DNA from: Candidatus Woesearchaeota archaeon
GTDB taxonomy: Archaea > Nanobdellota > Nanobdellia > Woesearchaeales > DSVV01
DNA length: 48,105 nt
Assembly: GCA_043813525.1 (NCBI GenBank)
Contig: JBDRKY010000115.1
Location: 1 to 48,105, forward strand
Reading direction: 5' to 3'
Of this stretch, positions 4,830 through 35,393 are shown piece after piece (the first letter of the stretch is position 1; every line of letters starts with the position of its first letter). The notes beneath the pieces are model-generated. The model worked only from the letters and a program-made list of their open reading frames with translations, made no database searches and was not told the DNA's origin. The position numbers and the translations under genes are program-made.

Positions 4830-5038
4830 AAATCCCAAATCCCAAACCCCAAATCCCAAATCCCAAATCCCAAATCCCAAATCCCAAATCCCAAATCCCA
4901 AATCCCAAATCCCAAACCCCAAATCCCAAATCCCAAACCCCAAATCCCAAAAAGGAGCTACGCCCTATATTATTTTTGTTTTTGGGATTTGTTTTTGTTG
5001 GGATTTGTTTTTGTTGGGATTTGTTTTTGTTGGGATTT
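4830..5038 (+). repeat. Inverted heptamer-array element, copy 1: 17 x AAA(T/C)CCC, a 29-nt core, then 4 x GGGATTT at 16-nt period
   Basis: Counted directly: heptamers 4830-4948, core AAAAAGGAGCTACGCCCTATATTATTTTT 4949-4977, GGGATTT at 4984, 5000, 5016 and 5032. Confidence 0.95.
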
Positions 5039-5070
5039 ACTGCTGTAGGCAGTTAAGATTAAATAATAAA

Positions 5071-5976
5071 ATGGAATCAAAAACATCAAATATGATTAAA
5101 AAAATCAAGAAAAACAATTTTGTACCTGATTATATCAGAAATTATGCTAAAGATTATGTTAAATCAATCAATGTGTTCAGGAGTTATAAATGGAAAATAT
5201 TATGGATACTTTTGATTGACATATCATACCTATTCTTGTTTTATCTGATTGCTGCATTAGTTGTCGGCAGTGTTATGAATACATATATTGATGATGTTCT
5301 TCCATTTGCAGAGAAAGTAGGCCAGTTAAAAAACATGGATATGAATAATAAATATTTAGATGAGATGAAAAAAGTTTCGCAAGAGCTGAAGGATATGTTT
5401 TCAAGTGATGATATGATATCAATAATATTCAAAGTTAGCAGTAGATTCATAGGCAAGATGCTGTTAGGTATATTTGTCCTTATATTGTTTGCATCAGCAG
5501 TAAAAGCACTTATCTGGAGCATCATAAGAAGCTCATTCAAAAGAGCTCATAGATTTGTGTTGTACAATGCTATTTGGATAGTTATGTGCCTATTATTTTT
5601 AGTGTTTGGAACAATCCTGATAAAACAAGATGTCATGATAAGATTATCATTGTTCTTATTCATCGCATACAGCTACTTATCAACAATATTAAAGATAAGA
5701 TACAATGATGAAAAGCCTTTGTTCAGGCAGATATGGACAAATATAACATTTGCAGTGAAATATTTTATACATTACCTTCCAATATATATTGCAGTGATTA
5801 CAACATCAACAATTATAATTATAATTATCTATACATTATTTCATATTTTATTACCTAATATCCTGCCAATGGCAGTAGGAAATCTGATATTAAGCCTGAT
5901 TATCTACATTGCCTTATTGATATTTATCAATTGGGGAAGGATATATATGTATGAAAAGACGAGGAAAACAGCTTGA
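5071..5976 (+). CDS. Multi-pass membrane protein (cassette gene C1); start uncertain
   Basis: About 6 hydrophobic segments; paralog of 21005-21832. The track start (TTG 5005) lies inside the repeat, so ATG 5071 or 5092 is more plausible. Confidence 0.75.
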   Translation: MESKTSNMIKKIKKNNFVPDYIRNYAKDYVKSINVFRSYKWKILWILLIDISYLFLFYLIAALVVGSVMNTYIDDVLPFAEKVGQLKNMDMNNKYLDEMKKVSQELKDMFSSDDMISIIFKVSSRFIGKMLLGIFVLILFASAVKALIWSIIRSSFKRAHRFVLYNAIWIVMCLLFLVFGTILIKQDVMIRLSLFLFIAYSYLSTILKIRYNDEKPLFRQIWTNITFAVKYFIHYLPIYIAVITTSTIIIIIIYTLFHILLPNILPMAVGNLILSLIIYIALLIFINWGRIYMYEKTRKTA

Positions 5977-8495
5977 AAAAAACAGATTCCATAAACAAAA
6001 GATTACAGAAAAAATCACAGGTCACAGTATTCATCATAATTGGTATAGTGATATTGCTCGCAGTAGGTGCTTTTATTTATATGAAATCCATCACCACAAA
6101 ATCAGGCAGCTCATTATCATTGATACAGGAAGAATCACCTAGAGAATTCAAGCCAATACAAAGCTTTATCACACAATGCCTTAAGGAAGTATCTGAAGAA
6201 GCAATAAGAAAGATAGGAATAGGAGGAGGACATATTGATTTAACTGACCCTTTGTACAGCACAGTAAGCTACAATCTTGATAAACAAAATCCTACTGAAA
6301 GCGATGGCATTATTGTCAGTGATGACCAAAAACTATTGTACTGGAATTATATGTCATCAGGAAATGGCTGTTCTTATAATGGATGTTATGTCAACTTTGA
6401 AGTGCCTGTATTTGATGAGATGAATGTTGAGATTGAGACTTATGTCAATAATAATGTTGAAGCATGCTTTAATAAGTTCACTGCATTTGAAAAAGATGGT
6501 ACAAAGATTACACCATTATCTGATTTTCCTGAAACTACAGTTGATATTGCTAAGAAAGATGTTGTTGTTCAGCTAAAATATCCGATTGATATAAAAAAAG
6601 GCTCATTAAACCACAGATTAGAGTATTATAACATTATACATCCAGTCAATCTAAGAGGGTTTTATGATACTGCTTTTACTATTGCGAATGCAGAGGCAAG
6701 AAACAGGTTCCTTGAGAAAGGAATTCTTTATGTGATGTCATTTTACCGAACAATGGACCCTGAAAAACTACCACCATTGATTGCCTCAAGCTATAAGCCG
6801 GAAAAGATTAAATGGTCAAAAACAGCTGTGAAAACAAAGATACAGGATCTGATAAAAGCTTATACGCCTTTGTTCAAGGTTGAGAACACAAAAAATGGAG
6901 ATAAGATAACATCAGATAAGATTATTGATGATAACATCTACAATTATCTATATCTCAAAAATAGTTATGAATTTCTTAAAGATTATGATATCAGATTCTA
7001 TTATCTTGACTGGCCTCTTTATGTTGATGTTACTCCAAGCAAAGGTGATGAGATATCTCCAGATATGGCAGACCATAATGTTGCAGACCAGATGACAGTA
7101 ACAACAAATAATTACAGATTCATGTATGATATTGCAGCACCTATATTGGTAGAGATCAAGAATAAAGATGATTATGACGGCAAAGGATACAGTTTCTTTT
7201 TTGCTTTAGAAGCTAATATAAAAAATAATTATGATATTTATACACATATGACATATGCAAGCCCAAAACTGCCAGATGATCTGTTTGAGGTTGAGCATCC
7301 TGAAGCTCTCAACAAAGAAAAAAAGATTATGACTGATAATGGAGATGAGATAACAATAGGTCCTGCAGAAAAACTTCCAAATGATCATATTTTCTGTGAA
7401 GATGAACAAAGAGAGGGGCCTAAGATTGATTTCATAATCCAGGAAGATAAGACAAACAAGCCCATAGAGACAGCAAATATATTTCTCATCTGCGGGCCTT
7501 TTTTCCAGTGCAGAATTGGACAGACAGACGCAGACGGCAAAGCAGCAGGTAAACTGCCATACTGCAATGGGGGCGCAATAAAAGTAGAACATAAAGATTA
7601 TCACACTGCATTAAGGCCTTTTGATGAATCAATACCTAACATGGCGCCAGACAAAATAGTTATGAAACTTTCAAAGCCAATCACTAAAAAATTTGTGATG
7701 AGAGTATTGAATTATGAAGACCTGATAAATGTTCCAGACACTATGCTGAAGAACAGCCAGTTCAAACAATTCAGAAAACAATTCAAAGATACATTTGCTT
7801 ATGAAGAATTTGGCAAAAATGTCACAATCACTGCAATGTTTACAAGAATATCTGAAAATGCATACACACCAGATTTTACCAGAGTAGCAAAGATAAACCT
7901 GCTGAGCTCAAAGATGGAAAGTGAGATTGAATTAGTTCCTGCAGATGTGCCATCAGGTTATAATGTAGAAATAATGTATATCAATCATTCAGTGCATATC
8001 ATGCCGTATGAAGATGATGATAATTATTATAATAAAAAAGATGAAGAAACAGGCAAAGAAGTCCATGTAACATCTGAAAAAGTGGATAATACAATGCCAG
8101 GCGCTGCAAGATTAAATGCAGATGATAATTATCCATGGAACATTAATTATAATGATCTTTTGGATCCAGATAAAGATGTAATCATATTTTATATCATAAA
8201 GATGAAGATGCCAGAATATGCTGAAGGAATCAAATATATAGCTGATGCGCCTAAACATTCAAAGAAATACAGATGGTTTATCCAACCAGAGCTGATATCA
8301 TCAAAAGACCTGAAGCCTGCGTTTAAAGGTGGAACAGGAGGTTTACCTTTGGAATCAGGAAATTCAGGCAGTTCTGGCGGAGCTACTGATAGTGATGGCA
8401 CAGAAGGAAATAGTGGAGAAAGCGAAGAAGCACAAAAACAAGAAAAAATTGAGAAATTAATGAAACAGGCATTAGAACAGGGGCAGGTAAAATAA
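5973..8495 (+). CDS. Class III (prepilin-type) signal peptide protein, long form (cassette gene D1)
   Basis: KKSQ-VTVFIIIGIVILL leader; family motif PIQSFITQCL...IGIGGGHI; full-length similarity to 32859-35123; start overlaps the C1 stop. Confidence 0.8.
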   Translation: MKKTDSINKRLQKKSQVTVFIIIGIVILLAVGAFIYMKSITTKSGSSLSLIQEESPREFKPIQSFITQCLKEVSEEAIRKIGIGGGHIDLTDPLYSTVSYNLDKQNPTESDGIIVSDDQKLLYWNYMSSGNGCSYNGCYVNFEVPVFDEMNVEIETYVNNNVEACFNKFTAFEKDGTKITPLSDFPETTVDIAKKDVVVQLKYPIDIKKGSLNHRLEYYNIIHPVNLRGFYDTAFTIANAEARNRFLEKGILYVMSFYRTMDPEKLPPLIASSYKPEKIKWSKTAVKTKIQDLIKAYTPLFKVENTKNGDKITSDKIIDDNIYNYLYLKNSYEFLKDYDIRFYYLDWPLYVDVTPSKGDEISPDMADHNVADQMTVTTNNYRFMYDIAAPILVEIKNKDDYDGKGYSFFFALEANIKNNYDIYTHMTYASPKLPDDLFEVEHPEALNKEKKIMTDNGDEITIGPAEKLPNDHIFCEDEQREGPKIDFIIQEDKTNKPIETANIFLICGPFFQCRIGQTDADGKAAGKLPYCNGGAIKVEHKDYHTALRPFDESIPNMAPDKIVMKLSKPITKKFVMRVLNYEDLINVPDTMLKNSQFKQFRKQFKDTFAYEEFGKNVTITAMFTRISENAYTPDFTRVAKINLLSSKMESEIELVPADVPSGYNVEIMYINHSVHIMPYEDDDNYYNKKDEETGKEVHVTSEKVDNTMPGAARLNADDNYPWNINYNDLLDPDKDVIIFYIIKMKMPEYAEGIKYIADAPKHSKKYRWFIQPELISSKDLKPAFKGGTGGLPLESGNSGSSGGATDSDGTEGNSGESEEAQKQEKIEKLMKQALEQGQVK

Positions 8496-8521
8496 TCTTT
8501 GAATAAATAATATGCAGCAAA

Positions 8522-10456: not shown

Positions 10457-10555
10457 TGAATTTATACTGCATTAAAATCGAAAAGTATTTAAAGAAACAC
10501 GCATTCAGGAATGTAGAATAATGAGATTTTTCTCGTCGAGAAAAGTGATATATAA

Positions 10556-12619
<2,064 letters not shown>

Positions 12620-12627
12620 GTTTTATA

Positions 12628-21986: not shown

Positions 21987-22973
21987 ATGATGATAAAATT
22001 AACAATTAAAACAATCAAAGGGAAAAAATATAATTACCTGGAAAAAACAATCAGAATAGGAAAGAAAGTAAGAAAAGTCTCTAAATATATAGGAACAGAT
22101 GAGAATATCAAAAAAAAGAAGATTGAAAAACTTAAGGAAATCTTCAGAAAAGAGCTTTTTGAAAGAACAATGAAAATCAGGGTTAATATAATAACAGAGA
22201 ATATAGATAGATTTGAATACCCTTTATCCAGTGAAGATATTAAAAAAATTGAAGAGATGAATTTCAAACATAAAGAGATCATGAGTAATCTGCATCCAAA
22301 AGATATTGAAGACCTAAATAAGAGATTTATCGCAAATTATGTCTTTGAAAGCAATGCATTAGAAGGAAACTCACTTACATTGAAAAATATAAACGAGATA
22401 ATATTTGAAAACAGAATAAGCAAAGGCAAAGATCTCAGAGAAATATATGATGCGCAAAACTCATATAACTTATTTTTATACTTACAAAAGATCAGAGAGG
22501 AAATCAGTGATAAGCTGATTATAAAAATACATAAATTACTGATGGACAAGATAGATGACAGATTAGGATATAGAAAAATACCAATATTCTTAATAGGCAA
22601 ACCTAACACAAAACTCTCAAAAGCTGATAATGTACAAAAAGATATGGATAATCTCCTCAAATGGTACAAAGATAATGAAAATAAGCTTTATACTTTAGAA
22701 CTAGCATTCAAGTTTCATGCAAAATTTGAAAAGATCCATCCTTTCTGTGACGGCAATGGAAGAGTAGGAAGATTTTTATTGAATTATATATTAATAAGAA
22801 AAGGCTATTTCCCAATAATAATCAGAAAAACAACAAGAAATAGTTATCTTAAAGCACTTGAAGCAGCTGATAGAGATAAATGGATTGTGTTGATGAGATT
22901 TGCCTTAAAACATTATAAAGATACATTCAGAAAATTTTTTGAAGTGTATTATAAGTATGGCAAGAAAGATTAA
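21987..22973 (+). CDS. Fic family protein
   Basis: Canonical HPFCDGNGRVGR motif plus ESNALEGNSLT. Confidence 0.93.
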   Translation: MMIKLTIKTIKGKKYNYLEKTIRIGKKVRKVSKYIGTDENIKKKKIEKLKEIFRKELFERTMKIRVNIITENIDRFEYPLSSEDIKKIEEMNFKHKEIMSNLHPKDIEDLNKRFIANYVFESNALEGNSLTLKNINEIIFENRISKGKDLREIYDAQNSYNLFLYLQKIREEISDKLIIKIHKLLMDKIDDRLGYRKIPIFLIGKPNTKLSKADNVQKDMDNLLKWYKDNENKLYTLELAFKFHAKFEKIHPFCDGNGRVGRFLLNYILIRKGYFPIIIRKTTRNSYLKALEAADRDKWIVLMRFALKHYKDTFRKFFEVYYKYGKKD

Positions 22974-25900: not shown

Positions 25901-27682
25901 ACCATTAAAAATAAACTTTTTCTCACCATTATCTAAAGTAACAACACCAATAAACATCTCTACTGGCTTGCCACTATCTGTTATGTAATACTTGCCTTCA
26001 CCAGGAACAAAGATAACCCCTGCAGGACCAGAATTACTTGGAGTTGTTCCATAAAAAGAAACTGGAACAGTTGGAGCAGATTGACCTGCGTTACCTAATT
26101 GTGATTCCTGCACCATGACATAATGACCTGTTTTATCTGCAATAAGAGTGCCTGGAGCCAACTGCATTAAAGACATACCTTGATTATCTGTTGCAATCTC
26201 AAATAATTGACCGTCTTTTTGAACAACTGGCTTACCATCATGAAGACCATAATCAGCTACATGCTCTTTTCCATATTGATCAACATAATATGTTACCTCA
26301 CCAGATGGAGTTGATTTTGTGACAAAATTTTCAGTGACTACATTTCCACTTGAATCATATAATCCAACCTGAGACTGAGCAGTACCATCAGCATTTACTG
26401 ATTTCGCCTTGTATACAGGACCGCCATTTGCATTCACTCCTTCCTGCTCTAGAATCATCAGCACTTTACCCTCATCCCCTACATATGATTTAGAATTATC
26501 ATCTCCCTGCACCCAGCCAGTAAAACTCGTTATTGGCTCTGAACCTTGTTGATAAACCATATAACTATTTGTTTTTTCATCTAATACAACTGTCTGTCCG
26601 TCTTGTGTTGTCTGTTTAAAATATGTTCTTGGATAACCATTGTTTTCAACCACAACAAGAGTAGAACTATCTTCAAAAACATCACCTTGTTCTAACTGAA
26701 CAATCACACCAGATGGATTACGTTTTGCATAAGTTGTTTTGCCGTTACTATCAACCTTAATAACCAAATTTGGTTTTCCATGCTGATAACCAACATCAAC
26801 AACAGATTGAAAGCCAGTTGAGGTAAATTCCAGCCCATTATTACCGCTATCTCCTAATCCTTGAACATCAACCCCACTAACATAAGCAAGACCAAAATCA
26901 TTAGCTGCTGCTTGTGCCTGACCACTTCCTTCTTTAAGAGTACCATCTTCTATATATCCAAATGTCCCAGAATTTCCACTTCCAGAACTTACAGGTATCT
27001 TAACACCTTTAGGAACTAATTGATATGTTGAATCAGTCTTGATACAAGGTTTGCCACTACATAAATAAACTGATTTTCCAGTAGGTGTTTTAAACATTGT
27101 GGGTTGAACATCAGATGATGTTTTATATTCTTCAACTTTCGGCATACTTTGCTTTGCAGTAGCAACTACTGAAGAATCTTCAATCGTACCAAGTGAATAT
27201 GTCTGTAAATTTTTTGCATTATTTTGAGTCAATATTGTTGACAGATCATTGTCATTGAAATCAGTTGTCAATTGTTCATTATATTCTAAATGAGAAGAAT
27301 ATGAACCATAACCATAATACACTTTGGGCTTATCATCATTAGTTGGCATAACAGTTACAACAAGATTTTGTGAATTATCTAATTTAACATCTAATAATTT
27401 AGCATTAGCATCACCTGTTTTTATGTCATCTGTCCTGAATATATGTCCATTATAAGAATACCATTTTCCTGCTTTTAGGTTATCACCAACATTTACAGGA
27501 ATTGCATTCCCTGATGAACTTCCAGCAATTAATTGAGTTTGTGCTGATTGTGCTAATCCAACAAGATTAGAATCAAATTTAGAATTCTGCTTATATTCTG
27601 GGCTGGTAAAGATAGTCAGGCCTACTATAATCATAGCTAATGTGATAAATATCAATGCTTTTCTGAACTTTTTTTTAGGCAT
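22988..27682 (-). CDS. Very large exported protein (cassette gene B2) with beta-rich repeats, low-complexity linkers, a TPR-like block and a Cys-rich C-terminus
   Basis: 1564-aa ORF with an N-terminal TM/signal; TPR-like YTDSGNYNEAAKEFEKLF...LYQAAIARKMNGD; C-terminal domain resembles 4159-4818. Confidence 0.8.
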   Translation of the reverse strand: MPKKKFRKALIFITLAMIIVGLTIFTSPEYKQNSKFDSNLVGLAQSAQTQLIAGSSSGNAIPVNVGDNLKAGKWYSYNGHIFRTDDIKTGDANAKLLDVKLDNSQNLVVTVMPTNDDKPKVYYGYGSYSSHLEYNEQLTTDFNDNDLSTILTQNNAKNLQTYSLGTIEDSSVVATAKQSMPKVEEYKTSSDVQPTMFKTPTGKSVYLCSGKPCIKTDSTYQLVPKGVKIPVSSGSGNSGTFGYIEDGTLKEGSGQAQAAANDFGLAYVSGVDVQGLGDSGNNGLEFTSTGFQSVVDVGYQHGKPNLVIKVDSNGKTTYAKRNPSGVIVQLEQGDVFEDSSTLVVVENNGYPRTYFKQTTQDGQTVVLDEKTNSYMVYQQGSEPITSFTGWVQGDDNSKSYVGDEGKVLMILEQEGVNANGGPVYKAKSVNADGTAQSQVGLYDSSGNVVTENFVTKSTPSGEVTYYVDQYGKEHVADYGLHDGKPVVQKDGQLFEIATDNQGMSLMQLAPGTLIADKTGHYVMVQESQLGNAGQSAPTVPVSFYGTTPSNSGPAGVIFVPGEGKYYITDSGKPVEMFIGVVTLDNGEKKFIFNGQSYSADSHITLDGKKVVMTKVGDETLYLDQYSSPVKDAVVKVGNTYQSIDSNGNVKTHTSTGKLSNGDIAVYDRTSGAFLGADGKPLAKGTHVTYAVGDAEYTVAVGKGGDPTKGTTIIVEEIAGLEMGPPSKLANPVQQQAQSAQQQPISPPPTEENPKDVGGTKFYVDDNGNIKVQVTGFDKDVKFVDGKPVIDGGWFNDDTPLTSEQIQQLSQVKSNQLKQFNDILIKNRPDSVQAGTPAKAGAPAEAGAPTEVKPAQTQGVTQTQVVLPVKVNAVPKGATKISVDHETGTTIFNAKENDVDYVYVKLSNGIVLKQPRNSFLATSTNSPPDGQPSSLVQTAPQPPVSKESASTAEPLTESPPAQHQTSWDKDKVVNLGGTDYFASDVEGVYIVNPGSSDEYYVDSDGLLVDKTGTKYYSGGGNYVPKTNENKAKAKPSDDKDGFESMNAVSTVDTSASKPSQTSEKTTATAQTESPTDAEQQPQAVQRSNLTPEQNRRLLNARSLYTDSGNYNEAAKEFEKLFKETGRLGILYQAAIARKMNGDNVIAKDYFLKILKKGSLTDELITKINQFLDEVNKNIENSNDSTNPTEQPASKPASKPAAEPAKTDKQKALEYKPPTNVAGLDKDGDVSACDDTATSCNPGEASFTFAHASIIDGVEGSVYVEDDSENQGKHKLCTKPNKEGCTKVRCDKLEGECTQKSTGDKHCTTFGGKTSCVDDPVDVVENMIKKCDAAKYSNKEAGTDCSGAQKRMDNLYDNLDFEFRSQVETVFGNLLDDWTGNAFSKLENSIYSAMCKVDYYNTGPQEVDLLMGTSITQEHNFAHNMSYLDKNEIIVMLGGEREKITDQYYRYAFTMKTIGPVHGIVYLYNKCTSKKSFSSADGKGWKDEFAVNNPLGVHQMHYAGDDTSFDCENSPECRFDYVCLKIMDNEHYKEPICNHLTGATFGLNEKGDIDCGTLSYTGFTKK

Positions 27683-28136
27683 CTTTCATACAATCCCTTA
27701 TTGTCACCCTTAATCGCTCAATCTTATCTTTGTTAAAATCATTTAATATAAGCTTACATTTGATTACAAAAGACTTCACATTATCTTCACTTTTTAATTC
27801 CACGTCTTTTATATAATATTGCGCATCAATTCTATCTTTTTTTAATTTTTTCAGGAATATATATTCTTCATCATTAAATTCTTCAAATAATTTCATCAAT
27901 TCAATTGTACAATCATGAATTTCAGATTTTACTCCTGCTTTCATCAAAATAGAATATAATGCATGATAACAAGCATAATAACCTGTGATTACTTTCCATT
28001 TTTTATTTGCAACAATCATCATTTCAATTGTTTCATCTGCTTCTTTCAGATATGATTCAGAGAGATGATACTTAAAATCTATCAGGGTAATACCTCTTTT
28101 TTGCTTACAACACCATATTAGTTTTTGATCAGTCAA
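27675..28136 (-). CDS. HEPN domain protein (MNT-HEPN pair)
   Basis: GYYACYHALYSIL...SEIHDC...RIDAQY. The in-frame TTG at 28136 follows GGAGG and overlaps the MNT stop (track start 28160). Confidence 0.85.
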   Translation of the reverse strand: MTDQKLIWCCKQKRGITLIDFKYHLSESYLKEADETIEMMIVANKKWKVITGYYACYHALYSILMKAGVKSEIHDCTIELMKLFEEFNDEEYIFLKKLKKDRIDAQYYIKDVELKSEDNVKSFVIKCKLILNDFNKDKIERLRVTIRDCMKDA

Positions 28137-28797
28137 AGTTCTGCCTCCATAACACATCAATCAAACTATTGATATTGCCAAAAAATTTATGATTTAACAA
28201 TACTTCTTTTGCTAATGGATTTTTTTTCTTAAATGAATTTTCTAACTCTTTTAAAGTAACATATTGAATATTAATTGTCCTAACATATTTTTTCAGAATT
28301 TTATCAACTTCATTTTTTTTGCATTTACCTACTGAAATAATGTCAATATCTGATTTTAGATCATAAGTATTTGATGAAAAAGAACCAAATAAGATTATAT
28401 TATCCATCACCTCTAACAATTCAGGGATAAGTATAGAGAGTTCTTTATTCCCACCTAGAATAATCAATGAACTGGCTGTCTCTGCCATCTGGATATACAT
28501 TTTTGTTTTCAAAGTTGAAGCTAGGAAATATAATTTATGATTCCCTTTTCTATGATAATCTAATATGTTCAATTTAACTAAATCATTAATCTTATCCAAA
28601 GCTGTTTGATGATTTATTGAGAGAAGCCTAGCAATTTCCCTACCATTATATTGAAGATTATACCCTTTAAGAAATATTGATAGTATGTCTAAATTTTTAG
28701 ACAATTGTCTATTTTTAGCAGACATTAATGAATTATGGCTAACATTAGCCATATTTGGCTTAACTATATTTTTTACACTCCTTTTGTTTACAATCAT
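28129..28797 (-). CDS. HTH-fused minimal nucleotidyltransferase (MNT)
   Basis: N-terminal HTH (GREIARLLSINHQT); LFGSF...SDIDI nucleotidyltransferase motif. Confidence 0.88.
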   Translation of the reverse strand: MIVNKRSVKNIVKPNMANVSHNSLMSAKNRQLSKNLDILSIFLKGYNLQYNGREIARLLSINHQTALDKINDLVKLNILDYHRKGNHKLYFLASTLKTKMYIQMAETASSLIILGGNKELSILIPELLEVMDNIILFGSFSSNTYDLKSDIDIISVGKCKKNEVDKILKKYVRTINIQYVTLKELENSFKKKNPLAKEVLLNHKFFGNINSLIDVLWRQNFD

Positions 28798-28864: not shown

Positions 28865-31800
28865 CTAATACTCTGGCGTTGTGCCAAACTCTTTTCTCTG
28901 GCTTTCAAAATCATCCTCTACCTTGTCATCATCATCACTGTCATCGCCCCAGTCAAACATATCCTTAAGCTCATCTGCAAGCTGCTGGATGTTGGTTATC
29001 AGGCTGGCAAAGGCAAGAGCTCCAACAATGCCATTCTTTATCCTTACTCCTGCACAGCTCAATCTCTCAGCTTTTGTAACACCTGTACATCCAACTTCAA
29101 ATAATCTTGATGCCAATGACGAGACAAGCTTGACACTGAACTGCCTCAAAAGATCAGGAAGTATATGAGCAAACTGGCCAAATGTGAGCATACAGACTAT
29201 TCTCCACGTCAAATCAGGACAGTCTTCTATGTCTTCACCTAAAAGATAAGCCTTGTTCATGCAGGTATTCTGCGCAACCAATGCTCTTTTGACAAGCTCT
29301 AAAGTATTTTTGATAGTAGGAATGCAAGGAGGCCAACAAATCAATGCCACCCAAAAATTTTTATGAGGATCAAATGGGAACCTTATAGTAGAGGAACCAG
29401 CCCAATAATCTTTTGGATCAATTGGCTTGCCAGGATTTGCCTTGTTTAATTTTTCCAGCTCTGTCTCTGACAATGGACCTGCACCAAGGCCTGCATCTGC
29501 CCATAACTGATCAGGCGACCAACTATCTATGTTCCACTTTCCGCCTGTTATCTTTGTGTTCCATGCCTGTGAACATGATGAGCATAAAGTAAGGTCGCAA
29601 AAGAATCCTAAGCTTAAGATTTCTTTGCTGTTCCATGGAGGATCATCTGAATTTGCATTTGAATCCTTGCTTCCTGTCCACAATGTATTAAGCATGTCTG
29701 CACCTAATTTACATTCTTTTGCTGCTGCTTCTGCAGGTGCATAAGCTGCTCCAACACCCTCAAATATCATACATATATCATTCCATATCTGCATCACAAG
29801 ATTGATGACTTTACAGAATGGAGCTATCTTCATTATGAAATCAAGGACATCTATTATCTTATCAAGAACATCAATCGCATCTTTATATTCCAAAATCTTA
29901 TCAAGTGTGCTGTCAGCAGGATTTGTGAATGGGGTTGCACTCAAAGGAATAACAGCTGAAAAGTAAAATGCTTCATTTGGTGTGTAAATCTTCTTGCCGG
30001 ATTTTGATGTTTGAACAATATCACCTTTACAAGCTATGACTAATGGTTCAGGAGCCACATTAGATGCAGTAGAAGCTACTGTTTCAGTCTTAGCTTCTTC
30101 TTTATCATCAAATTGTGCTATGCCAAACAATATCTCCTTCACTTCTCTGCTCTGTGTTGGTCCTAACAAAGGATATGTCTGTGATACAATAGCAACAGGT
30201 TTCATGCTGCCTTCAGCAAATGCTTCACCAATGCTTGCTGTGCATTCCCTTATATTAAAATCATGGACAAATGATGAATCTGATTTTCTATATTTATTAA
30301 GATCTAATTCCATTCTGAACAAGGTCTGGGTGCTCATCTTCAGGAAATTCCTGTTAAGCATATAATCACTGCCAAACGCAGGAAGTTTAGTAACATCAAT
30401 CTTAAACTCATCTTCAAAAAAGTCAACCTCACCTTCTTTTGCCTGGTAAACAGTGAAAGTATCTGAGCTTGCAGTTGCAGTATTCTCTGCTAAATCTGTT
30501 GCACTCAAAGTAAACTTATAATTGCCTGATTTTGAAATAGTAGGCAATTCCCAAATACAATCATAGACAAACTGCTGCGCTAATTCTTCATTAATCTCAC
30601 AGCCTGTCACTGGCAATGGATCAGACCAAATAGTCTTATCACTTAATTGCGCAGTGATTTTCGCAAGATTAAGAGGACTATTAGCTTCTTGGAGCTGTGC
30701 TTTGATAATGATGACATCACTCTCTGCTGTTGTGATTGGATAAGATACTTCTGTCTCTTCTGTTTCTCCTGTTGCTTGTCCTGCTATTGCTTGACCTGCT
30801 GTTGCTTGTCCTGCTATTGCTTGTCCTGCTATTGCTTGTCCTGCTATTGCTTGTCCTGCTATTGCTTGTCCTGCTATTGCTTGTCCTGCTGTTGCTTGAC
30901 CTGCTGTTGCTTGTCCTGCTGTTGCTTCATCTGCACCAGATACATCTCCACTAGATGAAGCTACTGATGTTTCTCCACTTTCTCCAATAGATGCTGATGA
31001 ACCTCCACCAGAACTCCCACTTATAGCACTAGAACCACCATCAACACTCAATCCATAAGATGCAGCTGACATCACTTTTATTGAATCCTTGACAAAGACA
31101 GGAGCTGTTCCGTCATAATAAAGTTCCTGTGATAATTCTCCAAATTCTGAACTTACTGCATTTCCTGCTATATCATGAGTATCAGAATGAACTACAATCT
31201 TACCTTTATACAGCATCAGATAATTGTTCTCATCAAAATAAGGTTTAGCATTCTTAATATTTTTAGGAGCCACATTATCCCATTTACATTGATAACCACC
31301 ATCTAGCTGAATACATTCACTTGGAGAAACCTTTGAATTGCCATTTATCTCTGTCATGTCAATCCATACCATATCCTTAGTAAGACCAGACTGCTGTTCA
31401 ATAATTTCTACATATATAGTATTCTTTGTCGTGCCATTAAGATATGGACCAAGATCAGTGTATATGCCTGCCAGCATTGGTGGAGTCTCATCTTCTTTTA
31501 AATCAAGACTATAAGATGATTCAGCTGAATTGCCATCATTATCAGTAATTACAATCTTAAGGCTAAGTTCTGCTGTACCTCCTTGATTATCCAGTTCAAT
31601 ACCTTTCCACCTGAACTGATATGTGGTAACTTTATCCTCTCCTGTACCTTCTGTTATTGCCTCAACATCTGAAGCTGTTTTTTTCTTGTAATTTGATTTA
31701 CTTGGATTCAAACCTGAAAAATCACCTATTGCATTTGCTGTGCCTAATGCATTGTCATCTGTAACATTAAGATAGATATCAACAGATGGTTTCTCATCTT

Positions 31801-32821
31801 TCTTGATATAACCTAATATATTGCCATCTTTTTTTACAACCAATGAGCCATCATTAATCTCAGGAGCAGTAAGATCCAAATTTTCTTTATCGCATTTTTC
31901 AATCTTATTGTCAACATTATCAACTGCCTTTATGCAAAACTCAACCTCTCCGCCTGCAATACCAAGCTCTTGATATGTTTTTGAGACTGTCTTTTCATAA
32001 TCACATCCTTCAAGATCAGCAGCAGCGACTGTATAAAAAGAATCACCTGCAATTGAATCGTCTTCTCCATCTGCACTGCTTTCTCCATCTGCACTGCTTC
32101 CTCCATCTGCGCTACTTTCCCCATCTGCACTGCTTTCTCCGTCTGAAGCACCTGCTGATGCAGATAAACCTGTGCCTTCTTTCATATATAATGATATCTC
32201 TTTAAGACCACTGCATTTACCAGAGCATTCAGAAGAAATGCAAGCTATCTCCTCAACATCAATGCCAAATTTGACTTTCTGGTCTGATGCTTTTTTGCTT
32301 GTTGTGAATTTGACAATCTTTGGCTTTTCAGAATCAACAATAATCTTACCTGTTTTCTTGCTCAATGATACAAGATAAGTATCTGTGAGCTCAACATTGA
32401 AATCCACAACACCACCTTTATTATTATATTGTGATGTCTTAAAAGTGCAGTCATACATACCAGCCTCACTGCCTGATACACAATCTTCAGGATAATGTAT
32501 AAAATTGTCTGCAAAAGTTATCCTTACCTGTTTAGTATCATCAAAACTTTCACCAGTATACAACAGACTTACCTTAATAAATATGTAATCATCATCAGCG
32601 CTTGATGTATAGCCCTCAATATTATCTTTTCCCATCGCTGATATATTGCTAATCTTACCCTGCAGTCCAGGATCTTCCAATGGATCCACAGCATAGACAG
32701 AGCTTACATACACAGGTAACATTATAACAAGACATATCATAAAAGAGGCAATGAGCTTCAATGTAGCTGTAGCTAATTTCTTATTCCCTTTATAATTATC
32801 ATTTGTTTTTTCTATTACCAT
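28865..32821 (-). CDS. Large exported Cys-rich protein (cassette gene A2), paralog of 266-4162
   Basis: Signal peptide also ending SSVYA; GKDNIEGYT matches GNDGVEGYT of A1; shared C-terminal Cys pattern. ATG 32821 avoids overlap with the upstream gene (track start 32890). Confidence 0.8.
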   Translation of the reverse strand: MVIEKTNDNYKGNKKLATATLKLIASFMICLVIMLPVYVSSVYAVDPLEDPGLQGKISNISAMGKDNIEGYTSSADDDYIFIKVSLLYTGESFDDTKQVRITFADNFIHYPEDCVSGSEAGMYDCTFKTSQYNNKGGVVDFNVELTDTYLVSLSKKTGKIIVDSEKPKIVKFTTSKKASDQKVKFGIDVEEIACISSECSGKCSGLKEISLYMKEGTGLSASAGASDGESSADGESSADGGSSADGESSADGEDDSIAGDSFYTVAAADLEGCDYEKTVSKTYQELGIAGGEVEFCIKAVDNVDNKIEKCDKENLDLTAPEINDGSLVVKKDGNILGYIKKDEKPSVDIYLNVTDDNALGTANAIGDFSGLNPSKSNYKKKTASDVEAITEGTGEDKVTTYQFRWKGIELDNQGGTAELSLKIVITDNDGNSAESSYSLDLKEDETPPMLAGIYTDLGPYLNGTTKNTIYVEIIEQQSGLTKDMVWIDMTEINGNSKVSPSECIQLDGGYQCKWDNVAPKNIKNAKPYFDENNYLMLYKGKIVVHSDTHDIAGNAVSSEFGELSQELYYDGTAPVFVKDSIKVMSAASYGLSVDGGSSAISGSSGGGSSASIGESGETSVASSSGDVSGADEATAGQATAGQATAGQAIAGQAIAGQAIAGQAIAGQAIAGQATAGQAIAGQATGETEETEVSYPITTAESDVIIIKAQLQEANSPLNLAKITAQLSDKTIWSDPLPVTGCEINEELAQQFVYDCIWELPTISKSGNYKFTLSATDLAENTATASSDTFTVYQAKEGEVDFFEDEFKIDVTKLPAFGSDYMLNRNFLKMSTQTLFRMELDLNKYRKSDSSFVHDFNIRECTASIGEAFAEGSMKPVAIVSQTYPLLGPTQSREVKEILFGIAQFDDKEEAKTETVASTASNVAPEPLVIACKGDIVQTSKSGKKIYTPNEAFYFSAVIPLSATPFTNPADSTLDKILEYKDAIDVLDKIIDVLDFIMKIAPFCKVINLVMQIWNDICMIFEGVGAAYAPAEAAAKECKLGADMLNTLWTGSKDSNANSDDPPWNSKEILSLGFFCDLTLCSSCSQAWNTKITGGKWNIDSWSPDQLWADAGLGAGPLSETELEKLNKANPGKPIDPKDYWAGSSTIRFPFDPHKNFWVALICWPPCIPTIKNTLELVKRALVAQNTCMNKAYLLGEDIEDCPDLTWRIVCMLTFGQFAHILPDLLRQFSVKLVSSLASRLFEVGCTGVTKAERLSCAGVRIKNGIVGALAFASLITNIQQLADELKDMFDWGDDSDDDDKVEDDFESQRKEFGTTPEY
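30771..30926 (-). repeat. In-frame 15-nt tandem repeat, 10 x A(T/I)AGQ
   Basis: GCTATTGCTTGTCCT-type units on +; the protein reads ATAGQ/AIAGQ ten times. Confidence 0.95.
32063..32144 (-). repeat. In-frame 18-nt tandem repeat (ADGESS, about 4.5 copies)
   Basis: TTCTCCATCTGCACTGCT-type units; protein SDGESSADGESSADGGSSADGESSADGE. Confidence 0.9.
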
Positions 32822-32858
32822 TTTAATCACAATTATTTTAGCTTGAAACTTCAAGCCT

Positions 32859-35123
32859 TTATTTACTAAATATAGGTTGTATCTTATCATAATTTATGCT
32901 TGAACATGCATCTCTATGGCTAAGAGCAATGAAATAATTCTCTATCTTCTGTGGTTTTCCTTCATCAAATACATATAATGTCATCTCCTTCTTGCCATCA
33001 ATATCATCTGGTTCAATTGTCATGATATAATTTGCTCCGCCAGAGATTATTGAATCTACTTGCTGATCATCATCTGGATAATACACATCCTTGTCTTTTT
33101 CGAATAAAGCCCCATCAATATGATATGATTCGCTGTTCTTCTTGATATCAAGCTCACCTTTCCACTTCTCTCCTCTAATCAGCATGATATCAACCTGATA
33201 CACACCAGGAGCAAGCTCTATCTCTGGCTTATTTTCTTCTGTGTAAAATGCAAAAGTATAAGGGTTTGTTGAAGCGATAGTAGGATCAATCCTTTTCAGA
33301 TTTATAATCGCCTGCTCATTCTTGTCAAGCACAGAAGCTGATGTATAAAGATTGCAACCAACAACTTGGCCATCTTTCAGTATGACGCCCTGTTTAGGTT
33401 TCAGTCCAGCTTTCTGCGCTGCCTCTAAGTCTTCTTTTGGTATAGGAGCAATTGTAAAATATTTCTGTATGTTCATACTGAGCTTTGTCAGTTTTGCCAG
33501 CTCAATCATTGTAGTAAATTCCTTATTAGGCTGCACATCACCAATGATAACTGCATCTTCACCATAACCTTTCTTTTCTACAACAACTGTTGCTCCGCCA
33601 AGGCAAGGAGGAAACTTAGATACCATTGCGCCTGATTGATCTGTCTTGCCTATAAAACATCTGTCGCTGAAAGGTGTTGAATTAACTAGTGTACCATTCT
33701 CATCATACTCATCTACAACAGAAGGGCCGCACTGATAATAAACCATAGCATCTGACAAAGGAGCTGAAGTCTGCTTGTCTATAACATTAACAACGCTCTC
33801 CTTACTTGTCTTCTGATCTTCACCGCATAGATATGTCTCCCTTGGCATTGTCTCAAGGCCAAGAACATCCTTGATGTCAGCTCTTGGGAAATTTGCTTTT
33901 GTTACAACCAACAGCGGAAACTGGAATATAAAAGGCTGCTGATTTATCCTGGAATCCTTGTCAACAAGAGTCACAAGCACAGGATATTTGAATGAATAAG
34001 GAAATTTATAGATGAACACACATTTCCTGCCAAATAAATAATTAAAATCCATCTGTGTAGGAGGTTTTATCATGCCTTTCTGACCCAGGTCAAGCTCAAG
34101 AGGAAAATTAGGGCGGTATTCAAACATAGTAAGAAAATCAGGATAACTGCTTTTGCTGACCTCTTTTGTCATCATGTCAAATATTCCCTGCATTGTAGAC
34201 CTCTTCTCTTCATCTTTCTGCTCACCCTGAGAAACTATAATCCTCTCAAAATCACTATTTCGTATTTTCAAGTATGGAAGGTTCATCGCAAGCACATTCT
34301 TAAAGCTGGAATGCACCTTATCTTCCATCCAATAAGTCATATCATTGCAGTCCACAACCTGCAAACCTCCAAACAAAGGCGGCAGATAATCAGGATTGAC
34401 ACGGCCATACATTGTGATAAGGTTCATTGTATTCTGCTCAAGAAAAGTTGTAGTCTCTTCGTAAGAAGCGATTTCCCTTGCAAATGTATAAGCTTTCTTC
34501 ACCCTTGCATTAACTTTTGTGCTGAAATGCTCAAGCTTGACTAAATTCTGATCCTTAATCAGATTCAAAGGATAATTCAATGTGACAACAACATCCTCTT
34601 CTGTGAATATTACTGATACAGACATCTCACCTAATGCTTCAACTACAGTACCCTGCTGCTTAAATATATCAAAATCATTGATGCATGTCGGCATATTCTC
34701 TGTGATATATCTTTCTAATTGATCCTGTACAGAGCCATCATTTGCGCTTGTCTTCTCAAGTTTTGGCATCTCACTCCTGTCAGCGCCGCCAACCCTCTGA
34801 TAATACCAATATGGAATAGCCTGATATTCTGAAACCTTAAGAACTGGAGATTCTAATGGCGCAAATTCATTCATATCTAATGGATATTGGTCTAAATATA
34901 TATGACCGCCCTGCTGACCAAGAACAACTATGCCCTGTTCAGTGATCTTCTGAAGACATTCCTGTGTATATGCAGTGACTGGGTCAGCTTGTTTCTCACC
35001 GATAATATCTTCTTTAGTAACAATACCTGTAAAATAAACAACACCAAAAACTAGAATCAATGCGACTAAACCTATGATAATAAAAATAGTAGCCTGAGCT
35101 GATTTATTCCTCTTTTTATACAT
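32859..35123 (-). CDS. Class III signal peptide protein, long form (paralog of 5973-8495)
   Basis: KSAQ-ATIFIIIGLVALIL leader; PVTAYTQECL...LGQQGGHI; FLEQ..P.YLPPL; YQCGP...CFIGKTD...PPCLGG. ATG 35123 follows GAAGGTG (track start 35153). Confidence 0.82.
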   Translation of the reverse strand: MYKKRNKSAQATIFIIIGLVALILVFGVVYFTGIVTKEDIIGEKQADPVTAYTQECLQKITEQGIVVLGQQGGHIYLDQYPLDMNEFAPLESPVLKVSEYQAIPYWYYQRVGGADRSEMPKLEKTSANDGSVQDQLERYITENMPTCINDFDIFKQQGTVVEALGEMSVSVIFTEEDVVVTLNYPLNLIKDQNLVKLEHFSTKVNARVKKAYTFAREIASYEETTTFLEQNTMNLITMYGRVNPDYLPPLFGGLQVVDCNDMTYWMEDKVHSSFKNVLAMNLPYLKIRNSDFERIIVSQGEQKDEEKRSTMQGIFDMMTKEVSKSSYPDFLTMFEYRPNFPLELDLGQKGMIKPPTQMDFNYLFGRKCVFIYKFPYSFKYPVLVTLVDKDSRINQQPFIFQFPLLVVTKANFPRADIKDVLGLETMPRETYLCGEDQKTSKESVVNVIDKQTSAPLSDAMVYYQCGPSVVDEYDENGTLVNSTPFSDRCFIGKTDQSGAMVSKFPPCLGGATVVVEKKGYGEDAVIIGDVQPNKEFTTMIELAKLTKLSMNIQKYFTIAPIPKEDLEAAQKAGLKPKQGVILKDGQVVGCNLYTSASVLDKNEQAIINLKRIDPTIASTNPYTFAFYTEENKPEIELAPGVYQVDIMLIRGEKWKGELDIKKNSESYHIDGALFEKDKDVYYPDDDQQVDSIISGGANYIMTIEPDDIDGKKEMTLYVFDEGKPQKIENYFIALSHRDACSSINYDKIQPIFSK

Positions 35124-35227
35124 TATATTAACACCTTCGATTATATAAACCATTTGCAGTATACTATATAAATGTTTTGGAATTTTGAGGCTGGGTCCAA
35201 GTTCGGGCTTTTAGATATTAATATTAT

Positions 35228-35393
35228 AAATCCCAACAAAAATAAATCCCAAATCCCAAAAAAACTAAATCCCAAAAAGAATATAGAGCGTAGCTCCTTT
35301 TTGGAGTTTGGGATTTGGAGTTTGGGATTTGGAGTTTGGGATTTGGAGTTTGGGATTTGGAGTTTGGGATTTGGAGTTTGGGATTTGGGATTT
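35228..35393 (-). repeat. Inverted heptamer-array element, copy 2: 13 x AAATCCC/AAACTCC, the 29-nt core, then 4 x GGGATTT (read on -)
   Basis: Heptamers 35303-35393; core on - is AAAAAGGAGCTACGCTCTATATTCTTTTT (27/29 identical to copy 1); AAATCCC on + at 35228, 35244, 35251 and 35267. Confidence 0.95.

Follow-up and report, generated by a model that had tools for sequence, protein, structure and literature searches.

Two copies of a heptamer-array element upstream of paralogous surface-protein genes in a DPANN archaeon: a possible boundary or regulatory module

Background

In a contig from a Candidatus Woesearchaeota archaeon, two gene clusters for surface proteins, ancient duplicates in this DPANN archaeon, each carry a copy of the same repeat-rich element. 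What is this element, and what might it do in front of these genes? An earlier note on this DNA had described the two copies as a heptamer array followed by a 29-nt core and four GGGATTT units, had called the element recently copied or under selection, and had offered a dispersed element, a regulatory RNA or a recombination site as explanations. Here we examine the element across the window, that is, the whole 48,105-bp contig (66% A+T).

Results

Layout of the element

The two copies and their neighbours are laid out as follows.

4159-4818, + strand: 219-aa protein, secreted or anchored in the membrane, which closes the 1298-aa/219-aa unit
4830-5038, + strand: copy 1, whole (sequence read directly)
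4830-4948, + strand: copy 1, 5' arm of 17 tandem heptamers (direct reading)
4949-4977, + strand: copy 1, core AAAAAGGAGCTACGCCCTATATTATTTTT (direct reading)
4978-5038, + strand: copy 1, 3' arm with four GGGATTT, at 4984, 5000, 5016 and 5032 (direct reading, TRF)
5071-8495, + strand: 301-aa multi-pass membrane protein (ATG 5071 or 5092) and 840-aa pilin-signal-like surface protein
32859-35178, - strand: 764-aa ORF, the first gene after copy 2 and paralogous to the 840-aa protein
35393-35228, - strand: copy 2, whole (sequence read directly)
35303-35393, - strand: copy 2, 5' arm of 13 heptamers (direct reading, TRF)
35274-35302, - strand: copy 2, core AAAAAGGAGCTACGCTCTATATTCTTTTT (direct reading)
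35228-35273, - strand: copy 2, 3' arm with four GGGATTT (+ strand AAATCCC at 35228, 35244, 35251 and 35267)
35191-35209 and 35411-35429, no strand: outer 19-nt inverted repeat around copy 2, 89% complementary

Heptamer array, 29-nt core and a T-rich arm with four GGGATTT units follow in the same order in both copies; T-rich spacers set the units apart, which refines the earlier description. The array of copy 1 comprises 14 AAATCCC and three AAACCCC units (TRF: 17.4 copies, 94% matches, score 223), and that of copy 2 alternates seven AAATCCC with six AACTCC-type units (AAACTCC; TRF: period 14, 6.4 copies, 100% matches), copy numbers that may be imprecise, the contig having been assembled from a short-read metagenome. 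The core of copy 1 holds a small GGAGC-TAC-GCC hairpin inside an A5...T5 frame and, on the opposite strand, an A-run with the TATA-like box AAATAATATA at 4975-4966; the opposite strand of the copy 2 core reads AAAGAATATA at 35276-35285. The GGGATTT units of copy 1 follow a perfect 16-nt period (TRF: 3.6 copies, 100% matches), and their spacing in copy 2 is the same minus one 9-nt spacer. Copy 1 lacks the outer inverted repeat, and an inner GATATTAAT pairing likewise encloses copy 2 only; together with the outer repeat, the fold-back there reaches about 239 nt (35191-35429). The word AAAATTCC, found 4 nt outside each arm of this outer repeat, represents a degenerate heptamer unit or else a repeat resembling a target duplication.

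An island of similarity between diverged cassettes

The two cores are identical at 27 of 29 positions. A degenerate form of the 29-mer matches exactly two sites in the window, where 100 shuffles give an expectation of 0.00, and no further site appears at up to three mismatches. A DNA alignment of the copies spans 182 nt at 82% identity (E=1.6e-48), and nothing else between the cassettes rises above noise. The flanking proteins are as highly diverged as the earlier note had stated, with 25% identity both between the 1298-aa and 1341-aa proteins (E=1.7e-24) and between the 840-aa and 764-aa proteins (E=2e-39). Neutral DNA would be lost at a divergence of about 25% protein identity; the island thus upholds the earlier claim of recent copying or selection. 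The copies share no exact match longer than 18 nt, and their higher-order periods differ (a perfect 14-nt period in the array of copy 2, a perfect 16-nt period in the G-units of copy 1), which points to recent independent slippage in each.

Both copies lie directly 5' of the 840/764-aa paralogue units and in the sense of those genes. We therefore agree with the earlier note that there is one element in two copies, with 17 and 13 heptamers, the shared core and four GGGATTT each, in the same sense relative to the paralogous genes. The paralogues are part of a large DPANN (Woesearchaeota/Nanobdellota) family that carries no annotation and has a pilin-like N-terminus; the window encodes two more proteins of this N-terminal family, of 222 aa and 554 aa, and neither has the element. 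Copy 1 starts 11 nt past the TGA stop of the 219-aa gene, TGA being a real stop that ends 11 of the 25 ORFs. Copy 2 sits in a divergent intergenic region with an mTERF-like gene on its far side. The 764-aa ORF likely starts at its second ATG, at 35123, which has GGTG 8 nt upstream: homologue alignments start at residues 11-17, and the Atlas record at residue 11.

Folding, termination and promoter signals

The earlier note had suggested that the arms fold back in several registers, and folding shows many pairing registers indeed. As RNA, copy 1 reaches -63.8 kcal/mol (z=-5.05) and copy 2 -84.4 kcal/mol (z=-7.3), and as DNA the z-scores are -5.0 and -7.6; in every case none of 200 shuffles was as stable. 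The share of the minimum free energy structure in the ensemble is only about 0.002. A G-quadruplex, suspected earlier on the opposite strand of copy 1, is predicted there with a small gain (-39.8 vs -37.3 kcal/mol), and no gain is predicted for copy 2. No Rfam family matches at threshold, the best scores being 29 bits against 98 and 23 bits against 100; all the sub-threshold matches are to hairpin precursors or small RNAs.

Oligo-T is an archaeal intrinsic termination signal. Within the genes of this contig, the coding sense strand has 1.43 runs of five or more T per kb and the antisense strand 5.75. The 3' arms are dense in them, with five runs in 82 nt for copy 1 (4973-4977, 4979-4983, 4992-4996, 5008-5012 and 5024-5028) and three in 68 nt for copy 2 (T5 at 35278-35274, T7 at 35264-35258, T5 at 35242-35238). 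A scan by bacterial rules finds no terminator site in copy 1 and one in copy 2, against a shuffle expectation of 0.4-0.5; the GGAGC-TAC-GCTCT hairpin of the copy 2 core with its T tail is flagged as terminator-like. TATA-like boxes at 35178-35165, between copy 2 and the 764-aa gene and 50-63 nt beyond the element, exceed the 99.5th percentile of the motif score, and a weak one follows copy 1 at 5061-5070 (score 4.9, 99.4th percentile), by a motif that is itself noisy, with sites spread from -7 to -54 relative to start codons.

Heptamer arrays elsewhere

We found no source of the core outside the window in 122 bacterial loci, plasmids, phages or protein-collection ORF calls, the scan of the genome collection having used one loose pattern rather than the core sequence. 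Arrays of the AAAYYCC type are dispersed across many bacterial genomes of distant phyla, several of which have two to four loci each. Among 69 bacterial loci (at least 3 kb), at least two partner G-units lie 3' of the C-array in nine and 5' of it in one, and partner units in total number 40 on the 3' side vs 7 on the 5' side; this A-rich-5'/T-rich-3' polarity is as expected for hairpin-plus-U signals. Unrelated bacteria show the fold-back arrangement of heptamers as well. In 64 loci assigned through a crude ORF call, the arrays do not favour gene ends (29 tandem, 8 divergent, 7 convergent, 19 within ORFs and 1 unassigned).

Discussion

From these observations, we tentatively propose, at somewhat less than even confidence, that the element acts in cis as a non-coding boundary or regulatory module, combining a terminator or insulator with a slippage-prone array. 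It would mark the 5' edge of the transcription units for the 840-aa and 764-aa surface proteins and would have three parts: a long, pure C-strand heptamer microsatellite prone to slippage; a 29-nt conserved centre in which A5 and T5 frame a small hairpin; and an arm with four GGGATTT amid three to five oligo-T runs. RNA polymerase arriving from upstream would meet the hairpin and stacked oligo-T and stop, so that copy 1 would terminate the 1298-aa/219-aa unit, and the downstream genes would be driven by their own TATA boxes 20-60 bp further on. We stress that several findings stand against parts of this proposal. No gene runs into copy 2 in the sense direction, the bacterial-rule scan yields sites at about the chance level, the TATA-like box at copy 1 is weak and the motif noisy, and the bacterial arrays lack a gene-end preference.

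A selfish or neutral fold-back repeat without host function, resembling a MITE-like non-autonomous element, or else a palindrome built by slippage and template switching and recently copied by transposition or gene conversion, is taken together an unlikely explanation. It would fit the sharp boundaries (an AAATCCC start and a GGGATTT end in both copies), the long MITE-like hairpin, the island within unalignable flanks, the inverted repeat around copy 2 with AAAATTCC outside each arm, the dispersal of AAAYYCC-type arrays among bacteria, and seven bacterial fold-back loci that have unrelated centres (L010, L037, L039, L074, L021, L052 and L013). However, there are just two copies in 48 kb, both 5' of paralogues and in the same sense, the shared element lacks a target-site duplication, and copy 1 lacks the outer repeat. 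A Pfam scan of 25 ORFs, ten of which have no Pfam match, reveals no transposase or recombinase domain; flanking homology for gene conversion is missing, and neutral slippage would not keep the arm asymmetry and exactly four G-units in both copies. Less likely again is a small structured RNA gene of about 150-200 nt, running from an AT-rich box abutting the array to the oligo-T ends and acting through its long hairpin or through a G-free C/A-rich tail that binds protein or G-rich RNA. The strong fold, the T runs that would define 3' ends in both copies, the nature of the sub-threshold Rfam matches and the TATA-like TATTAATTTA abutting the copy 2 array (35402-35393, 99.4th percentile) are consistent with it. 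The counterpart of this box at copy 1 scores low (96.9th percentile) and falls within the 3' end of the 219-aa gene, no Rfam family reaches threshold, and the small ensemble share of the best structure implies that no single structure is defined; furthermore, the first T5 run precedes the G-units, so that many transcripts would end without the 3' arm, and the change in the tip hairpin is one-sided and so gives no covariation.

We consider improbable a promoter in the core that fires away from the cassette gene into the array, with the four phased AAATCCC and A-tracts as upstream activator sites. The resulting (GGGAUUU)n RNA would be a discrete, G-rich repeat RNA running antisense across the end of the 219-aa gene at copy 1 and a long 5' leader of the diverging mTERF-like gene at copy 2. 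The only top-0.1% motif hits within the elements do fall on the opposite strand of both cores, each an A-run with a TATA-like box (AAATAATATA, score 10.0; AAAGAATATA, score 8.2), the predicted start lies on the first array units, a T6 run directly follows the copy 1 array on that strand, and the next gene at copy 2 encodes a nucleic-acid-binding mTERF-fold protein; but the motif is noisy in a contig of this A+T content, with a chance of a hit at that level in a 29-mer that we estimate at roughly 4%, the mTERF-like gene has better-placed boxes of its own (35493-35524), and the targets of the two copies are unrelated. Recombination between the copies, which are inverted, 30.2 kb apart and each 5' of its own cassette whichever way the segment lies, would invert the DNA between them and swap the cassette behind the 1298-aa/219-aa unit as an expression-site switch. 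A 2025 review (PMC11868660) recognises inversion systems as one class of phase variation, and the 82% identity would favour exchange; against this, an 18-nt exact match offers homologous recombination little to act on, the 25 ORFs show no recombinase domain, the segment holds housekeeping genes, including gyrB and a PAC2-family gene, and stacked T runs should block read-through, so that a swapped upstream unit would change little. The inversion is allowed by geometry, yet of the three explanations offered earlier it appears the least likely, and we rate it very improbable. We give hardly any credence to a coding frame switch, in which the array is translated as (KSQIPNP)n and its length sets the downstream frame, seven being 1 modulo 3, for example from an ATG at 4815 fused to a 323-aa membrane-protein ORF. 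In copy 1 no stop interrupts any of the three sense frames, one of which (4819-5976) continues into the downstream ORF, and the TGA stop before the array shares bases with the ATG at 4815. In copy 2, however, all sense frames close ahead of the 764-aa gene and have no ATG, which already disfavours the idea, and the two copies would be translated in different frames. Moreover, open frames arise from low-complexity composition, the set of called proteins lacks the 77-aa ORF, for which the protein-collection search gave no self match, and the T runs would end transcription.

Several known systems come close to the proposed boundary or regulatory module. The element resembles archaeal oligo-T terminators in its three to five non-template-strand runs of five T or more, in the position of copy 1 just past a stop codon and in the avoidance of sense T runs by the contig's genes. 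Ordinary archaeal terminators are short T tracts, without a 120-nt microsatellite, conserved centre or long fold-back, and copy 2 differs further in having no upstream gene to terminate. With MITEs the element shares a size of 170-240 bp, inverted ends, a strong single-strand hairpin and an intergenic island of similarity; it differs in lacking a target-site duplication of the shared element and a cognate transposase among the 25 ORFs, in being known from two copies only, at homologous positions, and in its strongly asymmetric arms of tandem heptamers. In Haemophilus influenzae, 7-bp repeats lie upstream of hmw1A and hmw2A, and each of these duplicated loci has its own array, as here. A promoter-region TAAA tract likewise underlies phase variation of the surface-protein gene nadA of Neisseria meningitidis, in the part of the study that we drew on (PMC2791445). 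The likeness to such phase-variable repeats lies in a long, pure array, of a unit that is not a multiple of three, upstream of large surface-protein genes; the differences are an archaeal host with TATA/BRE promoters and a promoter-distal array with an inverted arm and conserved centre.

The same heptamer is known from bacteria. In the sections consulted of a Xanthomonas euvesicatoria study, Xe_09 is an intergenic (GGGATTT)n locus with seven alleles of 6-18 copies (HGDI 0.803; PMC8002079), similar in site and length to the arrays of 13 and 17 here. The Xanthomonas arrays are simple direct repeats that serve as typing markers, for which these sections report no inverted partners, conserved centre or paralogue link, and their copy-number hypervariability is documented, whereas the archaeal arrays are known from one contig sequence. 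Direct repeats of another heptamer, TAACTGA, are described in the portion of the report at hand as abundant and intergenic in Beggiatoaceae, Cyanobacteria and Bacteroidetes, mostly with 2-6 copies a few nucleotides from start codons, only one inverted set being mentioned (PMC4679880). Like AAAYYCC arrays, they are scattered across distant phyla; a post-transcriptional role was proposed for them, a regulatory one being suspected and unproven (PMC4679880).

Conclusions

We hypothesize that the conserved centre and phased GGGATTT units are the likely protein-recognition part of the module in both cassettes, which would place the two under co-regulation. Since the array is distal to the promoter and not between promoter elements, the classic spacing mechanism does not directly apply; slippage would alter array length and thereby shift distance, pairing register and fold-back stability. 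In the part seen of the 2025 review, archaea are named only as a future direction for surveys of such systems (PMC11868660). If the module works as proposed, changes in array length may give this archaeon a heritable, reversible tuning of expression, akin to phase variation.

Anatomy and folding of the two copies

Direct reading of both sites bears out the layout claimed in the earlier note, namely an array of AAATCCC-type heptamers (17 units in copy 1 and 13 in copy 2), a core identical at 27 of 29 positions and four GGGATTT units. A degenerate core pattern allowing up to three mismatches occurs at exactly two sites in the window (shuffle expectation 0.00), and on these two grounds we regard that description as correct.

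Parts of the two copies and features adjoining copy 2
4830-4948, + strand: copy 1 array, 17 tandem heptamers (14 AAATCCC, 3 AAACCCC)
4949-4977, + strand: copy 1 core, 29 nt
4984, 5000, 5016 and 5032, + strand: copy 1 GGGATTT units, perfect 16-nt period (TRF 3.6 copies, 100% matches)
35393-35303, - strand: copy 2 array, 13 heptamers, AAATCCC and AAACTCC alternating with a perfect 14-nt period (TRF 6.4 copies)
35302-35274, - strand: copy 2 core
35191-35209 and 35411-35429: outer 19-nt inverted repeat, copy 2 only, stretching the fold-back to about 239 nt
35178-35165: TATA-like boxes between copy 2 and the 764-aa gene

In both copies the GGGATTT units are embedded in T-rich spacers, and the spacing in copy 2 is that of copy 1 minus one 9-nt spacer. 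TRF scores the copy 1 array as 17.4 copies with 94% matches (score 223). A AAAATTCC word lies 4 nt away on either side of the outer repeat of copy 2, and could equally be explained as a degenerate heptamer unit. We found no third copy at the start of the contig.

The folding check proposed in the earlier note gave folds well beyond those of shuffled sequence: the predicted RNA folds reach -63.8 kcal/mol for copy 1 (z=-5.05) and -84.4 kcal/mol for copy 2 (z=-7.3), the DNA folds give z=-5.0 and z=-7.6, respectively, and in each case none of 200 shuffles is as good. Its statement that the arms fold back in several registers is also right, since many registers pair and the minimum free energy structure makes up only about 0.002 of the ensemble. 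The tip of the core forms a small GGAGC-TAC-GCYC hairpin, in which the sole difference between the copies puts an A-U pair in place of an A·C mismatch, a one-sided change. The G-quadruplex potential that had been proposed is predicted for the opposite strand of copy 1 alone, which contains the motif (at least four G3 tracts, loops of up to 7 nt), with a weak predicted gain of 2.5 kcal/mol in a G4-aware fold. On the opposite strand of copy 2, however, the G3 tracts recur every 14 nt and no quadruplex is predicted, nor is one predicted in the sense 3' arms with their 13-nt loops; we therefore rejected the G-quadruplex as a feature common to both copies.

Conservation amid diverged genes

The window is one entire contig of 48,105 bp and is of archaeal origin, on the evidence that it encodes GyrB, MetRS, a PAC2-family protein and a HEPN/nucleotidyltransferase pair, that A+T-rich TATA-like boxes lie upstream of its start codons and that its genes strongly avoid T5 runs on their sense strand. 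The 1298-aa and 1341-aa proteins share 25% identity (E=1.7e-24), as do the 840-aa and 764-aa proteins (E=2e-39), and judged by these alignments the two cassettes are true paralogues.

Gene order in the two cassettes
Cassette 1: 1298 aa, 219 aa, element, 323 aa, 840 aa, 644 aa
Cassette 2 (- strand): element, 764 aa, 1341 aa, nucleotidyltransferase, HEPN, 1564 aa

The order of the genes is unlike between the cassettes; what they have in common is the element directly 5' of the 840/764 unit and in its sense, so that the same-sense placement reported in the earlier note holds. Sensitive blastn of one cassette region against the other yields the element as the sole alignment (4858-5039 with 35393-35227; 82% over 182 nt, E=1.6e-48), all other matches being noise (E of at least 0.27). 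Because neutral DNA is no longer alignable when the encoded proteins are at 25% identity, the claim that the element is either selected or recently copied is upheld. A gene-conversion gradient between the copies was ruled out, as the flanks are without similarity.

The arrays themselves diverge, with AAACCCC variants in copy 1, a perfect AAATCCC/AAACTCC alternation in copy 2 and a perfect 16-mer in the 3' arm of copy 1; read from the repeat patterns, these differences point to slippage that was recent and independent in each copy, while the core stayed stable. With 17 and 13 units, both copies carry the long, pure, slippage-prone short-unit tract expected of a contingency locus, and the TATA-like boxes follow about 120-230 nt downstream of the array, which falls outside the interval between promoter elements.

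No Pfam or NCBIfam family matched the 840/764 protein, which nevertheless belongs to a large family, with 3052 representative clusters when E<=1e-3 is allowed and 394 when the limit is E<=1e-30. Even the best match to the 764-aa protein reaches an identity of only 50-59%, and the Atlas neighbours are 'hypothetical proteins' of Woesearchaeota/Nanobdellota. By these matches the host is a DPANN archaeon, and the collections searched contain no close relative. Homologue alignments start at residues 11-17 and an Atlas record at residue 11, so the start of the 764-aa gene is most likely the second ATG, at 35123. From the end of the element to the candidate start codons the distance is 32-53 nt for copy 1 and 74-104 nt for copy 2. 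The 840-, 764-, 222- and 554-aa proteins share an N-terminus in which a basic stretch is followed by Q/A-x-T-x-F-I-I-I-G and a hydrophobic helix, which we take to resemble an archaeal pilin-type signal and for which Pfam gave no confirmation; no copy of the element precedes the genes for the 222-aa and 554-aa proteins.

Several further features of the neighbourhood deserve record. The giant cassette proteins, encoded on the - strand, contain in-frame tandem repeats (30772-30927, 15 nt x 10.4; 32063-32145, 18 nt x 4.6; 25132-25188, 18 nt x 3.2), which are further slippage-prone tracts in surface-protein genes. The toxin-antitoxin-like nucleotidyltransferase and HEPN pair (27675-28797, - strand) separates the 1341-aa gene from the 1564-aa gene in cassette 2, a Fic-domain gene occupies 21987-22973, and a YkuD (L,D-transpeptidase) domain protein is encoded in this archaeal contig at 15073-16224 (+). 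Divergent from copy 2 is a gene for a 272-aa mTERF-fold protein (35533-36351, +; Pfam score 41.9 bits, cut-off 23.1; TM 0.62 to eukaryotic mTERF in an Atlas structural match) that consists of four 34-aa repeats differing little from one another (102-bp period, 3.9 copies, 91% matches). This modular nucleic-acid-binding fold is unusual for an archaeon; the protein could bind the heptamer repeat, the sole link being adjacency. Beyond it, a 1229-aa MetH-like fusion (36450-40139, +) carries S-methyl_trans, Pterin_bind and B12-binding domains and a C-terminal MTHFR domain, and such a cobalamin-dependent methionine synthase-MTHFR fusion is an unexpected metabolic capacity for a DPANN genome. Within this ORF, where a linker joins the homocysteine-methyltransferase domain to the pterin-binding domain, lies a second heptamer array (CCACRAG, 8.3 copies, 37390-37447, +), translated as the 7-residue repeat SHEPQAT; adding or removing a number of units not divisible by three would break the gene.

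Coding potential

The heptamer is open in all frames and gives the same heptapeptide from each. One frame of copy 1 stays open all the way from the TGA that ends the 219-aa gene to the 323-aa ORF, and there is an ATG overlapping that stop. TGA terminates 11 of the 25 ORFs in the window and is thus a genuine stop, every sense frame of copy 2 is closed ahead of the 764-aa gene, which excludes a coding position there, and the reading frame would differ between the copies; for these three reasons the element is treated as non-coding. On the same evidence we rejected a coding frame switch and a stop-codon reassignment, and consider a coding switch extremely improbable. A 77-aa ORF across copy 1 had 31 protein-collection matches and a 102-aa ORF across copy 2 had 17 including itself, with the core-encoded peptide present in none of the 31 and none of the 16 others, respectively; the matches are heptamer arrays of other organisms, two of which (P0185 and P0203) have a C-array followed by G-type units. 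From the analyses of both sites we conclude that the element is real, non-coding and near-constant at its centre, and that its position and orientation link it to a single paralogous gene unit.

Transcription signals and alternative explanations

Archaeal RNA polymerase terminates intrinsically at oligo-T tracts. In the window, runs of five or more T are strongly avoided on the sense strand of coding regions (1.43 per kb, vs 5.75 per kb antisense), and the 3' arms hold five such runs in 82 nt (copy 1) and three in 68 nt (copy 2), so that tracts of at least five T stand on the non-template strand in both copies. Given these tracts and this mode of termination, sense transcription is expected to end within the element; it fits this expectation that copy 1 begins 11 nt past the TGA of the 219-aa gene and that TATA-like boxes lie beyond copy 2. 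The TATA-like box downstream of copy 1 is weak. A scan under bacterial promoter and terminator rules came out at, or close to, what shuffles predict: it flagged one hairpin with a T tail, in the core of copy 2, and no such site in copy 1. We tentatively hold, as the likeliest of the readings considered and with confidence somewhat short of even, that the element is a cis-acting boundary or regulatory module, combining an oligo-T/hairpin terminator-insulator, a slippage-tunable array and a shared recognition centre. The main weakness of reading it as a boundary is copy 2, which lies in a divergent intergenic region rather than at the 3' end of a unit and has no gene to terminate.

The alternatives differ in what they make of the same structure. 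If the element were a functionless fold-back repeat or a MITE-like copy, terminal inverted repeats would fit, as AAATCCC/GGGATTT ends are present in both copies, but no direct repeat abuts the common element in either copy as a target-site duplication would, in a comparison comprising two copies within a 48-kb contig; Pfam found no transposase domain among the 25 ORFs, and we judge this origin fairly unlikely. An inversion site, as suggested by the inverted arrangement of the copies, is very unlikely, since the longest exact identity between them is 18 nt and the 25 ORFs scanned, 10 of which are without any Pfam match, yielded no recombinase or integrase domain. Comparison of the core by eye with the NANTATTAC loop motif led us to drop the idea of a rolling-circle origin (two mismatches in copy 1, more in copy 2).

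Two further readings place a transcript or its start within the element itself. That the element is a small RNA gene, for which the stable predicted folds speak, we regard as decidedly unlikely: Rfam at gathering thresholds gave no match across the whole window, the best permissive matches were to hairpin-precursor families far below threshold (29 bits against 98, and 23.3 against 100), and there are no tRNA or tmRNA genes in the window. An antisense promoter in the core draws on a promoter motif learned de novo from 17 leader regions, which is noisy and was used as a weak indicator only; within the elements its top-0.1% matches are confined to the core, in each copy on the opposite strand, and we give this explanation a low probability, lower than that of a small RNA. 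What probability remains falls to an artefact or to a reading outside those considered here.

Related arrays in bacteria

A scan of the genome collection with a loose, degenerate three-unit heptamer pattern returned at least 122 bacterial stretches, 80 of them with full flanks; among the matches listed, none of the 122 contains the core. Among these matches AAAYYCC-type arrays are scattered over many bacterial phyla, and several genomes have two to four loci each. At least two inverted partner units lie within 300 nt in 11 of the 73 listed loci of at least 2.5 kb. Setting orientation by the C-strand of the longest array, we observed among the 69 listed loci of at least 3 kb that 40 partner units lie 3' of the array and 7 lie 5', and that nine loci have two or more units on the 3' side vs one on the 5' side; the distant flanks of the listed loci hold 26 partner-type units in 80.8 kb. 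A layout like that in the window, with a C-strand array, an unrelated centre and G-units frequently spaced by another heptamer, is found in seven loci (L010, L037, L039, L074, L021, L052 and L013). Loci L019 and L069, from unrelated bacterial phyla, are also fold-back heptamer elements, with (AAAYYCC)n, an unrelated centre and GGRRTTT units. The recurrence of the layout in unrelated phyla suggests a general structural signal, or else that palindromic microsatellites arise by a mutational route of equally general reach.

When ORFs were called crudely in 64 loci among the matches listed, 29 arrays lie between tandem, 8 between divergent and 7 between convergent genes, 19 lie in an ORF and one is unassigned, so they are mostly intergenic with no preferred gene arrangement. 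In the plasmid collection the array part alone matched, in four records, none with the core, and no record of the phage collection matched. Two of the loci retrieved are of other kinds. The start (positions 1-700) of L033/L034, a Spirochaetota MAG contig, consists of (CCCCAAA)n, about 640 nt of very A+T-rich sequence and (GGGGTTT)n before turning G+C-rich, and resembles either foreign DNA flanked by telomere-like repeats or an assembly chimera. In L106, a Flavobacteriaceae chromosome, positions 290-1283 are made up of higher-order tandem units of about 100-115 nt, in each of which a (TTTGGGATTTGGAA)n block precedes a conserved spacer.

Possible implications for surface-protein control

A (GGGATTT)n array is known to change length rapidly: in the excerpted text of a typing study of Xanthomonas euvesicatoria, locus Xe_09 is such an array with 7 alleles of 6-18 copies (PMC8002079). 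Intergenic TAACTGA heptamer repeats, for which a regulatory role is suspected, are described in the excerpt of another study from Beggiatoaceae, Cyanobacteria and Bacteroidetes (PMC4679880). Those repeats lie a few nucleotides upstream of a start codon, whereas the present element has another unit and ends 32-104 nt before the candidate starts. The excerpt of a 2025 review of phase variation names archaea solely as a future target (PMC11868660). Literature searches by sequence string returned typing-marker and primer papers only, none of them describing a fold-back (AAATCCC)n/(GGGATTT)n element; the bacterial fold-back heptamer elements likewise went undescribed in the literature searched.

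In the most far-reaching reading, slippage of the array would re-register the fold-back terminator or operator, and this re-registering would cause a stochastic, reversible change in the expression of alternative surface-protein cassettes used in host contact. The two elements would then be both the first repeat-driven contingency switches seen in a DPANN archaeon and archaeal members of an undescribed cross-domain class of fold-back heptamer elements with a fixed polarity (C-strand array, variable centre, spaced G-units). Taken as one joint claim, this reading is quite unlikely. Fold-back elements of that kind are scattered also over Chloroflexota, Planctomycetota, Verrucomicrobiota, Bacteroidota and further bacterial groups.

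DPANN archaea spend their life attached to host cells, relying on large, fast-evolving surface proteins. To our knowledge, almost nothing has been established about how these proteins are regulated or varied, and we are aware of hardly any search for phase variation in archaea. Because it is conserved, slippage-prone and placed at the head of two anciently duplicated surface-protein cassettes, the element is a concrete, testable candidate for surface-protein control in DPANN.
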